Source: Chiloscyllium plagiosum
Taxonomy: Eukaryota
Length of the DNA: 64,000 nucleotides
Direction of reading: 5' to 3'
NCBI RefSeq assembly: GCF_004010195.1
Contig: NC_057748.1
Location: 4,787,374 to 4,851,373 of the forward strand
The position numbers were made by a program, and so were the translations under genes. The notes below the pieces were generated by a model. That model ran no database searches. It was not told the DNA's origin and was given only the letters and a program-made list of their open reading frames with translations. This document shows positions 48,288 through 59,069 of this stretch, piece after piece. Every line of letters starts with the position of its first letter. Position 1 is the stretch's first letter.

Positions 48288-48533
48288 ATGGGCAGCCTGT
48301 GGCGCCTGTTAACGGGCAGTTGTCGCTTCCTCCTGGTCGCACCTCGCCTCCTGCCACCCCCGGGCCCGCCTTGCTACCCCCTCGCCGCCCGGGCACAGCT
48401 GCAGGTCCGGAGGGGGCCCCAGGGCCCGCGGAAATGGGGCAAAAACCGTCAGGACTACCCGAGGGAATGTGAGGAAGGCATCAACAGACAGATCAACCAG
48501 GAGCTCACCGCCTTCTATGTCTACCTGTCCATG
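48288..48533 (+). CDS. Ferritin B (candidate mitochondrial ferritin), exon 1 with N-terminal presequence
   Basis: Kozak GCCATGG; MGSLWRLLTGSCRFLLVAPRLLPPPGPPCYPLAARAQLQVRRGPQGPRKWGKNRQDYPRECEEGINRQINQELTAFYVYLSM, then a GTGAGA donor at the conserved ferritin intron-1 position. Confidence 0.9.
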
Positions 48534-48544
48534 GTGAGAGTGGA

Positions 48545-49700
48545 TCCCAGCGGGGAATCCAGCAGATCCCAGCCACTCCTGTACATCCACCAGGTCCCAT
48601 TTGATCCAACACAGCACATCCGAACACCCAGCACACCCCATTTACTCCAACATGCCCACCCCCCAAACAAGAAACCAGCAGATCCCATTTGACCCAGCAC
48701 ATGAAGTCAGGACATCCTGCACACACTCCAGCAAGGAATCCAGCAGGTTCAACCTACTCTGGTTCCCATTCACTCCAACACATCCCCCAAAAAGGAATCC
48801 AGCGGATCCCATTTGATCCAATACTTTGCATCAGGACACCCAACAGATCCCATTCACTCCAGCACGTCCCCCATCAAGATTTCCTGGATCCTATTTCAGC
48901 ACATCCCAACAGGGAATCCAACAGATACCATTTGATCCAGCACATTCCAACAGGACATCCAGCACATCCCATTCACTCCAATACATTCCCACAACAAGGA
49001 AGCAACTGGATCCCATTTGATCCAACACATCAAATCAAGATACCCAGCAGATGCAATTCAGTACTGCACACCGCCAGCAAGGAATCCTGCAGACACAACA
49101 CACCCTAGACTCTAGTCACTCCAGCACATTCCAACAGGGAATCCAGCAGATATCATTCTCTCTAGCACACCCCAACAGGAAATTCAATAGATTCCACTGA
49201 TGCCAATACTTTTTAATAGGGAAACCCAGCGGATCCTCACTGCCTCATGCATAATGTGGGTAGTCCTGGACTATCCCAATCACTTTGCCACATCCCAGGA
49301 GAGACTTCGGCATATTCCCATGCAGTTCAGTCATTTCCAGTAAGGAATCCCAGCACAAGCATGGAGAAAATCCTGAAGCTTCCAGCATATCTCGGGAGAG
49401 AATCCAAGCATATTCTCACTGTTAAATCCCAGAAAGGAATCCCAACACGTCCCCAGGAGACCCCAGGATAAAAATCCAGCCAGTCATGTTCAACTCTGAA
49501 CATGCGAGGAGGGAAACCCAGCATGTTAAGGAGACAGTCCGACAGATCACATTCAGATTAAGATACCTTTGGAGATAAATCCCAGGAGAGAATCAAGCAC
49601 ATCCCATTCAAGACAGTATATCCTGATGCATCCTACAGAGTCCAGGATGTGTCACAAGGGATTCCAGCACATCCCAGCAAGGTGTCCTAGTACATCCACA
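48545..49700. repeat. Degenerate minisatellite (~35-37-bp unit) at the start of ferritin B intron 1
   Basis: Recurring ggaatccagcagatcccatt(t/c)(g/a)(a/c)tccagcacatccc units that decay with distance from the exon. Confidence 0.8.
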
Positions 49701-50392
49701 CTGTCTAGCCTAACACCAGCCATCCCAGTCCCTACATTAACACAGCAGCTTCAATGCAGAAATAGCAAGACTCCACAGTAGCAAAACAAATCCAGTGCAA
49801 CCTATACAATGGAACATAACCCACACAGCACAGCTGAGGACCTCTGTATTTTCCTCTCAATTAAAACACATGCCCTGAAACAATTCCAACATCTTCCATC
49901 ACTTTCCCATCCCAAAATATAAATTCAGTTTGGCTGGAGATAAGTGACAAAGGAAAAACATCATGGCTGGGTGTGGTTTATAGCCCTAATAATAATTAAA
50001 GTCTAGTTCAGAGTATATAACATTACTATTCAAGAAAGTGGGGAGCCAGGAAGCATAAAGCTATTATCTAAGATTGGAAAATTGCTAGAATTCAGTAATG
50101 TAGCAGGTTATTTAGAACATCGTCATGCAAACAGGCAGAGTCAACATGGTTTTGTGAAAGGGAACCTGACAGGTTTATTACAGTTCGAGGTGAATGTTAA
50201 AAGTATGGTAAAGAAGGGGGGATAGCAATATTTGGATTTACAAAATGCATTCAAAAGGATGAATAAACAGTTAATTGGCAGGATAAAAGCTCATGGTGTT
50301 TGGGGGGCTATGTTAGCATGGATAGAGGGAGGTGACACCCGAGTGGTATTATAATTGGACTTAATCCATTGACCCAGCATTGATCCAATAGG

Positions 50393-50730
50393 GTGGCTCT
50401 GGTTAGCACTGCTGCTTCATGGTGCTCAGAACCAAGGTTTGATTCCATTTTCAGGTGACTGTGTGGAGTTTGTATATTCTCCCTGTGCCTAGTGTGTGTT
50501 TCCTCTGGGTGCTTTGGTTTCCTCTCACAGTCTAAAGATGTGCAAGTTAGGTGGATTGACCATGGTAAATTGCCTGTAGTGTCCAGGGATGTGCAGGTTA
50601 GATGGGTTCGCCATGGGAAATGTAGGATTATAGGGATAGCTTGGGAGGGGTGGGATTGGGTGGGATGCTCTTCGGAGGGTCGGTGTGGACTCAATGGGCC
50701 AAATGACCTGCTTCCACACTCTGGAATCTA
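50393..50730 (+). mobile_element. Older HE1-type SINE
   Basis: ggtggctctggttagcactgctgc head and conserved core. Confidence 0.75.
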
Positions 50731-51745
50731 TGACCCAGGTAACATTCTGGCGATCCAGTTTCAAATCCTGCCATGGCAAGTAATGGAATTTGAATTAATT
50801 AAAATTTGGAATTAAGAGTCGATTGTGGAAGGGCGAGCGAAAGCCCATCTGGTTCACTAATGTCCTTTAGGGAAGGAAATTGCCATCCTTACCTCCGTGT
50901 GACTCCAGACCTACAGCAATGTAATTGACTCTTAACTCAATTAGGGATGGGCGATAAATGCTGGCTCTGCCAGTAATGGCCTCTTCCTCCAATAAAAAAA
51001 GGACTGGCTGACTAACAAGAAACAGAGTCAGGATAAAAGGTCATTTTCAGATTGGTGAACTATTAACTAGTCAAGTGACAAGGGACCAGTACTGAGACTT
51101 GAACTATTTGCAATCACCATTAATCACTTGAATGAAAGGTCAGACTGTATTGTAATTAGATTTACTGATGGTATAAGGATATGTAGGAAAGCAAATTCGG
51201 GATTGGGTGGGATGCTCTTCGGAGGGTCGGTGTGGACTCAATGGGCCAAATGACCTGCTTCCACACTCTGGAATCTATGACCCAGGTAACATTCTGGCGA
51301 TCCAGTTTCAAATCCTGCCATGGCAAGTAATGGAATTTGAATTAATTAAAATTTGGAATTAAGAGTCGATTGTGGGAGGGCGAGCGAAAGCCCATCTGGT
51401 TCACTAATGTCCTTTAGGGAAGGAAATTGCCATCCTTACCTCCGTGTGACTCCAGACCTACAGCAATGTAATTGACTCTTAACTCAATTAGGGATGGGCG
51501 ATAAATGCTGGCTGTGCCAGTAACGGCCTCTTCCTCCAATAAAAAAAGGACTGGCTGACTAACAAGAAACAGAGTCAGGATAAAAGGTCATTTTCAGATT
51601 GGTGAACTATTAACTAGTCAAGTGACAAGGGACCAGTACTGAGACTTGAACTATTTGCATTCACCATTAATCACTTAAATGAAAGGTCAGACTGTATTGT
51701 AATTAGATTTACTGATGGTATAAGGATATATAGGAAAGCAAATTC
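50652..51745. repeat. 547-bp tandem duplication (50652-51198 / 51199-51745)
   Basis: Two adjacent copies differing at about 6 positions by eye. Confidence 0.92.
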
Positions 51746-57112: not shown

Positions 57113-57259
57113 TCATACTACTTTGACCGGGAAGATGTCGCTTTGCGGAACTTTGCCAAGTTCTACTTTGAGCAGGCACTTGAGGAACAGAAACATGCAA
57201 AGTTGCTGATGGATTTTCAGAATCAACGTGGAGGCCGCATCATCTTCTGGGACATCAAG
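57113..57259 (+). CDS. Ferritin B exon 2
   Basis: [52 protein letters not shown] acceptor, GTTAGT donor. Confidence 0.96.
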
Positions 57260-57371
57260 GTTAGTGGGTGAGAGATCTCTCTACCCTTTTTCCTTCCCTG
57301 TTCCCAATGCCTTCTCCTTAATGTTAAGCAATTTGGTTCAACTCCATTGACCCAATTGTCTTTATTCATAG

Positions 57372-57497
57372 AAACCCAGCCGGGATGAGTGGGGAAATGG
57401 CTTGGAAGCTATGGAACAGGCCCTGGAGCTGGAGAAAACGGTGAACAAATCTATCCTGGAACTACACAAAGTGGCATCCGAGCACAACGATCTTGTT
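57372..57497 (+). CDS. Ferritin B exon 3
   Basis: [45 protein letters not shown] acceptor, GTGAGT donor; follows a 112-nt intron. Confidence 0.96.
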
Positions 57498-58913
57498 GTG
57501 AGTTCACCAAACATTGCCAAACCCTTTCCACTCTGAATTGATGTATACATTTGTTGCCCTAAGAACTGGAAAAGTTCTGTATAGATTTAACGCAGTCGTT
57601 TAAAGCTATAAGAGACCCTCCTGGAATCAGTAAGGAGAAACTGTTTGTGCTGGCTGGAAGGGCAATATCAAAAAGATTAGGGTTCAAGATAATTGGCAAA
57701 AGAAACAGAGCGATGGATAGAGTGTTTTTTTAAACTTAACACAGAGCATTATGAAAGGGTGGTGAAAGCAAATTCTGGTAACTTACCAAAGGGATAAATA
57801 TAGGAGGATTTGAAGGGCTGTGGGGAATGAGTAGGAGAGTGAGAGAAACTGGATGACTCTTCCTTTTAGCTAGCATGGAAGTGTGGGGTTGCATAGTCTC
57901 CTGTGCTAAGCAGTTCTGTGATTAAACATAGAGGAGCGAATGTACAAAGCAACATACTTAATGGCTGTTTTGTTTGACTCACCTTCGTTAGTAAAACCAG
58001 GTGACAAACTCATGGAATCTGGCCATGATTTACCGATTAATACAAAGAGACATTGCACCCAGAAAGGACAGAACGCCCCCTCAGTTTCAACCCTGTGATG
58101 GTAAGCTGGTGTTACGCCAGTGACTCTGCATAAAACACTTGGAAACAAATATCACAAATGCTCAGATCAGTTAGTGAACATCGGAAAATCCCTCTTTAGC
58201 CAGTGAATAATTGGATACATTCTCAAGGGTTTATAGCCATCTTACAGAAGGGGAACAAACCTATAGTGTGGAAATTTGATTCTCATCTGAGCAAACTACA
58301 ACAGCGTTTATTTGAAGGACAGCAGAAAGATTCAATAGTCTATTGTATCAGGAAACTTTTAAAAATTCATTCAGAGGATGTGGGTGTTGTTGGCTTAGTT
58401 GACCTTGAGAACGTGGTGGTGAGCTGCCTTCTTGAACTGCTGCAGCTGTTGGTAGCCCCACAATGTCATTAGGGAGGGAGTTGCAGGATTTTGACTCAAG
58501 TGTAAAGTTGCCATAGTCCTACTGGACCAAAGGACTGCTGTTTCATTAGAGACAACTGGTGGTGGTTTAACGTGAGGGTGAACCACGCTTCAGGCAAAGG
58601 GAGAGTGAGAAGGAGAATCCTTCATGGTAACCTCAGCTAGTGCAGAAATTTAACCCACGCTGTTGGCATTACATTGCATCAAATATCAGCCATCCAGCCA
58701 AATGAGCTAGCCAACTACCAATTCAGGAGTAGGATCTAATCATTAAACACTCTGACTGGTTGTGGACAATTTCGAGCTTGAAATGTGCGTCACTATTCAA
58801 CTGAACAATGTACATGAACTGAGGCTGGTAACCAAATCTATCAGTAGAGTCTGGAGTGACATAAGTATTGGTATAGAGGCAGTCCTCAGCAGTACATTTT
58901 CTTTCTGTTTCAG

Positions 58914-59069
58914 CTATGTGAGTTCCTGGAATCTAACTACTTGAATGAGCAAATTGAGGCCATTAGGATGTTTGGAGATCACATCACCAACCTGAAGCGG
59001 TTGGGAGCTCCTGAGAATGGCATGGGAGAGTACTTGTTCGACAAGCACACCCTGGGGGAAGGCAGCTAA
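58914..59069 (+). CDS. Ferritin B exon 4
   Basis: [51 protein letters not shown]; total spliced protein 224 aa. Confidence 0.96.

Follow-up and report, generated by a model that had tools for sequence, protein, structure and literature searches.

A shark and ray ferritin with a likely mitochondrial presequence, arisen separately from mammalian FTMT

Introduction

Do sharks and rays possess a mitochondrial ferritin of their own, and if so, was it built independently of the mammalian gene FTMT? The question is raised by a ferritin gene in a stretch of 64,000 nucleotides from Chiloscyllium plagiosum (RefSeq assembly GCF_004010195.1, contig NC_057748.1, positions 4,787,374 to 4,851,373), hereafter the window, in which the first exon places a basic leader ahead of the ferritin core. 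An initial annotation, made from the sequence alone, proposed a mitochondrial ferritin that had arisen convergently within a cluster of cytosolic ferritins. Mitochondrial ferritin is recorded, in the reviews cited here, for mammals, for Drosophila or other insects, and for plants (PMC8393899, PMC11719527, PMC13207978). The human protein, FtMt, is described as having a 60-residue leader, with processing that removes 58 residues, and as carrying the substitution A144S; its gene is described as having no iron-responsive element (IRE) and a promoter activated by YY1 (PMC8393899). The gene examined here is intact, single-copy, and found across sharks and rays, and sequence comparisons indicate that its product probably carries a cleavable mitochondrial presequence that arose separately from that of FTMT.

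Results

A four-exon ferritin gene with an extended first exon

The gene lies on the forward strand and has four exons, with GT-AG intron ends and an unbroken open reading frame of 224 codons, as initially read (Table 1). The product is identical, letter for letter, to RefSeq XP_043535477.1, whose database name is "ferritin heavy chain, oocyte isoform-like". The Pfam model Ferritin matches each of the four exons, with exons 2 and 3 exceeding the curated cut-off. In the AlphaFold model, residue 59 onward forms a five-helix ferritin, and residues 1-47 have predicted local distance difference test (pLDDT) values below 50, leaving the leader unstructured. By its ferritin domain, its five-helix fold, and its four exons with three introns, the protein is a 24-mer ferritin of vertebrate type. 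All seven ferroxidase ligands are confirmed by alignment to human H: E72, Y79, E106, E107, H110, E152, and Q186 correspond to E27, Y34, E61, E62, H65, E107, and Q141. By these ligands, the encoded ferritin is predicted to be a ferroxidase-competent subunit of H/M type. H118, C130, and E134 are also kept, with Glu at position 131 and Ala at 144.

The extension, initially put at about 50 residues, is a leader of 53; the first 55 residues of the protein do contain 8 Arg, 2 Lys, no Asp, and no Glu, as had been counted. Exon 1 has in-frame Met codons only at residues 1 and 82, the latter lying beyond helix A, and an in-frame stop stands just upstream of the start codon. Because no AUG occurs between Met1 and residue 82, a functional subunit needs either the leader or a non-AUG start.

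Intron 1 opens with a degenerate repeat of about 41 bp (window positions 48560-49340), which is shared by a decayed copy on contig C2 described below. The intron also contains a 547-bp tandem duplication (50652-51745), 98.9% identical between copies, that is either recent or an assembly artefact.

The leader is conserved across sharks and rays

Homologue searches plus protein-cluster look-ups identified a leader-bearing ferritin in 21 elasmobranch species, twelve sharks and nine batoids, spread by our assignment over six orders of sharks and four of batoids. The count omits P0004, P0072, P0133, P0313, P0314, and P0315, each a second model of a counted species, and P0020, an array-type fusion. 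Leaders range from 27 to 64 residues and come in 14 different lengths, with the reading frame kept in all 21. Pooled, their 1103 residues include 157 Arg and only 8 Asp or Glu. M1 is invariant, G2 and S3 are each kept in 20 of 21, and R42 is kept in 19; the residue that follows R42 is Gly, Ala, Ser, or Cys in 20 of 21 rows. Just one species has a Met within the leader. The initial annotation had stated that it would be refuted if the extension or its frame were not conserved in related sharks; both are kept in the twelve sharks, and in the batoids as well. By these sequences, the leader-bearing ferritin is an elasmobranch-wide gene rather than a quirk of one lineage.

Contig C2 carries a decayed copy of exon 1 that shares 79% identity across 174 nt and has three single-base insertions or deletions. 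This frameshifted, dead copy shows how the same DNA decays without selection, and in-frame leaders in 21 species, set beside it, argue that translation of the leader is under selection. Similarity to the C2 copy (L021) starts some 35 nt before the ATG, a boundary that may reflect the start of an unspliced transcript or else a deletion. It runs on into intron 1, which rules out a spliced retrocopy.

The leader-bearing ferritins are not FTMT orthologues

Trees of the kind that the initial annotation had proposed were built on core sequences only: a 49-row tree under LG+G4, for which the bootstrap is not fully settled, and a 39-row mixture tree. Leader-bearing cores form one clade in both, with supports of 100/99 (49-row) and 100/98 (39-row). 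Mammalian FTMT is nested among amniote H chains (99/99 and 100/99), and the gnathostome H clade (97/96 and 97/97) excludes the leader-bearing proteins. When the leader-bearing clade was forced together with FTMT, the approximately unbiased (AU) test rejected the arrangement (p=0.0096 and 0.0133). Identity of the FTMT core is 82.5% with horse H, as against 57.9% with the core of the present protein. The gene has the three canonical introns rather than none, lies outside amniote H, and encodes Ala, not Ser, at position 144, as do the aligned orthologue rows; it is therefore no FTMT orthologue. Nor is it an FTH1 orthologue, since the H gene lies on contig C16 with an IRE and the H clade leaves the leader-bearing gene outside. 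The trees, the AU tests, and the three introns thus support the claimed origin independent of FTMT.

The weakly supported sister of the leader-bearing clade is a leaderless Callorhinchus ferritin (84/74 and 70/68). Some Callorhinchus entries bear the name "ferritin mitochondrial" (e.g. AFM87687.1); these differ in being 176 residues long and leaderless, so the name is probably a transferred label. In a search for long ferritins, considering the best 120 of 284 matches, every match of at least 82% identity was from an elasmobranch, and of the 33 long matches inspected, those from outside elasmobranchs that carry an extension retain the usual Met. No leader-bearing member of this clade from outside elasmobranchs appeared among the homologue-search matches listed, although unannotated orthologues may exist in chimaeras or bony vertebrates.

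Promoter and iron-responsive element

By customary motif definitions, the 400 bp upstream of the gene (GC 0.63) have a CpG observed/expected ratio of 0.84, three YY1 motifs, a CCAAT box, and no TATA box, bearing out the description of a YY1-rich CpG-island promoter. By contrast, the five array ferritin genes compared have ratios of 0.00-0.12 and no YY1 motif. In the Heterodontus model P0316, the translated upstream region forces two YY1 cores, one 72 and the other 40 codons before the start, which is indirect evidence of a conserved promoter. Contigs X1 and X6, from two runs, leave the window upstream of 47855 with identical loose letters, which suggests that an insertion or deletion is polymorphic close to the promoter.

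An Rfam scan found no IRE in the window, and none at E<=10 in 47700-48700, confirming the absence first noted. As positive controls, the same scan found two IREs in 150 kb of further loci, one at the FTH1 gene on C16 and one at the neighbouring M gene. Four runs, aligned over 47400-50600 in search of expression, have zero depth at 48363-48576; pieces match repeats and the upstream region, and the single-cell run contributed 11 reads, none of them on exon 1. The result is uninformative, and database gene models are the basis for the transcript start and the splicing given here.

What kind of leader?

Leaders of the orthologues were compared, on a simple hydrophobicity scale, with those of other long ferritins, including a signal-peptide-like set of invertebrate ferritins labelled by eye. 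Asp and Glu are absent from the first 40 residues in 15 of 20 orthologues and in 8 of 10 proteins named FTMT, as against 1 of 14 FTH1 models that read through the 5' untranslated region (5'UTR) and 1 of 12 signal-peptide-like ferritins. Peak 12-residue hydrophobicity is 1.05-1.91 for orthologues and 0.32-1.91 for FTMT, and reaches 1.98-3.08 for the signal-peptide-like set. The leader is thus basic and acid-poor, like that of a mitochondrial ferritin, with no hydrophobic core of the signal-peptide kind as judged on this scale and against these controls. Processing-peptidase sites commonly follow an R-2 rule, and the best fit for the leader appears to be a matrix presequence cut near R41-R42, leaving 182 residues. 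From these properties, a location in the mitochondrial matrix seems quite likely.

Several observations pull in the other direction. In this species alone, a Markov model built on the leader's own GC-rich DNA yields no Asp or Glu with P=0.50 and at least nine Arg plus Lys with P=0.23; the hydrophobic moment gives p=0.11 against shuffles. The basic, acid-poor composition stands as counted and is weak evidence on its own. The amphipathic look first ascribed to the leader does not decide the matter: the moment exceeds shuffles at p<=0.05 for no more than 4 of the 20 orthologues, although likewise for only 3 of 10 FTMT leaders. Gly and Pro make up a median of 11 of the first 40 residues in orthologue leaders versus 5 in three FTMT leaders, and so high a content is unusual in a helical presequence. 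In 5 of 21 rows, among them that of this species, R42-G43 is followed by a Pro, and an uncharged stretch of 15-19 residues opens some shark leaders. Control leaders came from the same homologue searches as the orthologues. All orthologues are database gene models, two of which needed the homologous internal Met to be used as start: that of Rhinoraja, which begins 49 codons further upstream, and the Heterodontus fusion P0316. The 21 species share kinship, so counts across them are not independent. Ten further paralogues within the DNA scanned likewise lack an IRE, and just two paralogues there carry one; the absence is real, and does not single out the leader-bearing gene. Composition and amphipathicity of the leader in this species are at chance level for GC-rich DNA; its conservation across species exceeds chance.

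The strongest alternative to a presequence is a leader that is translated and retained, whether as a basic disordered tail tethering cytosolic cages to membranes or nucleic acids, as a nuclear signal, or as a site of N-myristoylation at Gly2. The near-invariance of G2, the weak amphipathicity and high Gly/Pro content, a basic cluster at residues 41-54, and a Cys in most leaders all suit such a tail. The myristoylation pattern, in the PROSITE form familiar to us, fits only 5 of 20 leaders, this one not among them, and the Kozak preference for G at +4 also explains G2. A leader whose length varies widely around a lasting charge pattern and R42 is what a presequence would lead one to expect. We regard a retained tail as unlikely.

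A secretory signal peptide, which would place the protein in plasma or yolk and make it comparable to the secreted ferritins of invertebrates, is much less probable still. It could draw on the uncharged Leu/Val/Gly opening stretch of several sharks and the sawfish, on 9-residue hydrophobicity of 2.2-2.5 in 5 of 20 orthologues, and on ovary expression of the Greenland shark ferritin cluster as reported in a preprint (10.1101/2024.09.09.611499). The 12-residue values, however, do not overlap those of the signal-peptide-like set, and Narcine and Leucoraja have a deletion of the opening stretch, which Arg interrupts in orectolobiforms.

That the extension is an annotation artefact, a GC-rich 5'UTR read through above a true downstream start or a silent gene, is hardly credible. 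Many mammalian FTH1 models do bear spurious extensions of this sort, and chance-level composition is what such an artefact would show, but those models keep the normal Met, which the leader-bearing gene lacks before residue 82. The start motif and frame are conserved in sharks and rays, and it is the dead C2 copy that is frameshifted.

Finally, the idea that the protein is mitochondrial and shares its descent with FTMT, the mammalian gene having come from the leader or a retrocopy of an ancient mitochondrial ferritin with introns, can practically be set aside. In its favour, two of seven FTMT leaders score above shuffles when compared with this leader (p=0.004 and p=0.012), about as well as two ray orthologues (p=0.018 and 0.024); we read these matches as shared composition. 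The other five FTMT leaders do not, and core identities, AU tests, and the lack of leader-bearing non-elasmobranch clade members among the matches listed all oppose it.

A remnant of an IRE or 5'UTR was also considered as the source of the leader and rejected, there being no resemblance to the 5' regions of M or H (p=0.14 and 0.11). An ESM Atlas search with the leader returned one match at 0.77, to a mostly plant cluster that is 27% ferritin, under the bar set, and a search with the sawfish leader returned no usable match. Basic, acid-poor N-terminal extensions occur also on ferritins of non-vertebrate type (P0150, P0154, P0168, P0185, P0254, P0264, and P0279, the last from the slug Arion), and these sequences may represent mitochondrial ferritins in further lineages.

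A ferritin cluster surrounds the gene

Exon 2 has 93 matches in the genome. Two arrays on contig C39 account for many, at 4.52-4.89 Mb (28 matches), where the leader-bearing gene itself sits, and near 10.6-10.7 Mb (16 matches; array limits 10.58-10.75 Mb). Locally, array genes are followed by a degenerate ferritin (-), the leader-bearing gene (+), an IRE-bearing M gene (-), and an L-type gene (+). Modelled paralogues have internal exons of 147 and 126 nt in common, and in seven of them the first coding exon is 102 nt; the full long exon 1 occurs in the genome only in the leader-bearing gene. The four-exon structure and M/L orthology of ferritins are given in PMC4117605. Like the M ferritin of fish and amphibians and the shark array genes, the leader-bearing gene has exons of 147, 126, and 156 nt; it lies in the same cluster, and its core is 63% identical to the neighbouring M protein. 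It differs in its leader, its lack of an IRE, its separate clade, and its presence as a single copy rather than an arrayed gene. An origin within this M/L-type cytosolic cluster is thus supported by sequence. Of the tandem duplication initially proposed, origin in the cluster holds; the backbone among non-H subunits is weakly supported, and the trees do not single out a parent paralogue.

The upstream neighbour at 33060-42691 is an intact-looking ferritin of 175 residues with no IRE that falls outside the L clade; it is possibly a second non-catalytic subunit. L017, a modelled member of the second C39 array, carries E62 to K and Q141 to E; the promoters of the array genes examined are poor in CpG, and none of these genes has an IRE. 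The M gene has copies without introns on C27 (L022) and C19 (L023), and an array gene has one on C30; all are likely retrocopies, and a further match lies on C35. Glycogen synthase is linked to the FTL locus and serves as its synteny marker. A reduced-sensitivity search found no match to it on C39; of three such loci in the genome (C16, C23, and C40), that on C16 (48.76-48.81 Mb) lies about 1 Mb from FTH1.

Table 1. Features of the leader-bearing ferritin gene and its surroundings (window positions, unless a contig is named)
Feature	Position	Strand	Remarks
Promoter, TATA-less CpG island	48002..48183	+	YY1 motifs at 48002, 48045, 48071; E-box 48110; CCAAT 48179
Exon 1, coding part	48288..48533	+	82 codons: leader plus helix A; strong Kozak context at start
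N-terminal leader, predicted mitochondrial presequence	48288..48446	+	53 residues; conserved in 21 species; targeting inferred
R41-R42-G43, predicted processing-peptidase site	48408..48416	+	cleavage after R42 would leave 182 residues
Exon 2	57113..57259	+	147 nt; ligands E61, E62, H65 (human H numbering)
Exon 3	57372..57497	+	126 nt; ligand E107
Exon 4, coding part	58914..59069	+	156 nt including TAA; Q141 and A144
Candidate polyadenylation signals AATAAA	59222 and 59319 (59222..59324)	+	motif match
Upstream neighbour, leaderless four-exon ferritin	33060..42691	-	E61 to K and H65 to Q
Downstream neighbour, M-type ferritin, exons 3-4	62534..64000	-	exons 1-2 and IRE just beyond window
L021, decayed exon 1 copy plus about 0.8 kb of intron 1	C2:63039579-63042501	-	sequence similarity

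Discussion

We favour, with rather less assurance than the presequence itself, a history in which a mitochondrial ferritin arose in the elasmobranch lineage before sharks and batoids parted, by extension of exon 1 in a tandem duplicate of the M/L cluster under a YY1 housekeeping promoter. This would be the first mitochondrial ferritin in a non-mammalian vertebrate. It would predate FTMT by far and would have stayed single-copy next to an array of dozens. Its starting point is a four-exon ferritin of that cluster with a longer exon 1 and no Met at the usual start, in which leader, start, and frame are kept across the 21 species and the cores group together, separately from H chains and from FTMT. 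The TATA-less promoter, with its YY1 and CCAAT motifs in a CpG island, would give broad, iron-independent expression. The leader would carry the precursor through TOM and TIM23 and be cut near R41-R42 to leave about 182 residues. In the matrix, the subunits would assemble into a 24-mer, oxidize Fe(II) at the intact ferroxidase centre and, as FTMT does, lessen iron-driven oxidative damage.

With its basic, acid-poor leader of similar length, its seven ferroxidase ligands, its lack of an IRE, and its promoter YY1 sites, the shark gene resembles FTMT as the latter is described in PMC8393899. It differs in having three introns where FTMT has none, in its M/L-cluster location, in falling outside the H clade, in Ala144 rather than Ser, and in its CCAAT box and CpG island; its location, moreover, is predicted. 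If the matrix location holds, the protein works like FTMT, yet is not its orthologue. Mitochondrial ferritins of Drosophila and plants are likewise described as separately arisen organelle-targeted ferritins (PMC8393899 for the different origin; PMC11719527); these are non-vertebrate and share neither leader nor clade with the shark protein. We found no description of the leader-bearing ferritin of elasmobranchs in the open-access literature, as distinct from subscription journals and supplements. The Greenland shark preprint reports an ancient ferritin expansion with ovary expression, and its main text, supplements aside, does not mention mitochondrial ferritin (10.1101/2024.09.09.611499).

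If this reconstruction is true, vertebrates built a mitochondrial ferritin twice and from different subunits, once from H through an intronless copy and once from the M/L cluster through extension of an exon. About 20 database entries named "heavy chain-like" would be corrected. Knockout of FtMt in mice is reported to give mild phenotypes (PMC11719527). The elasmobranch version would offer a natural comparison for the question of what purpose FtMt serves, the more so as Ala144 predicts a shark protein without the substitution that slows FtMt.

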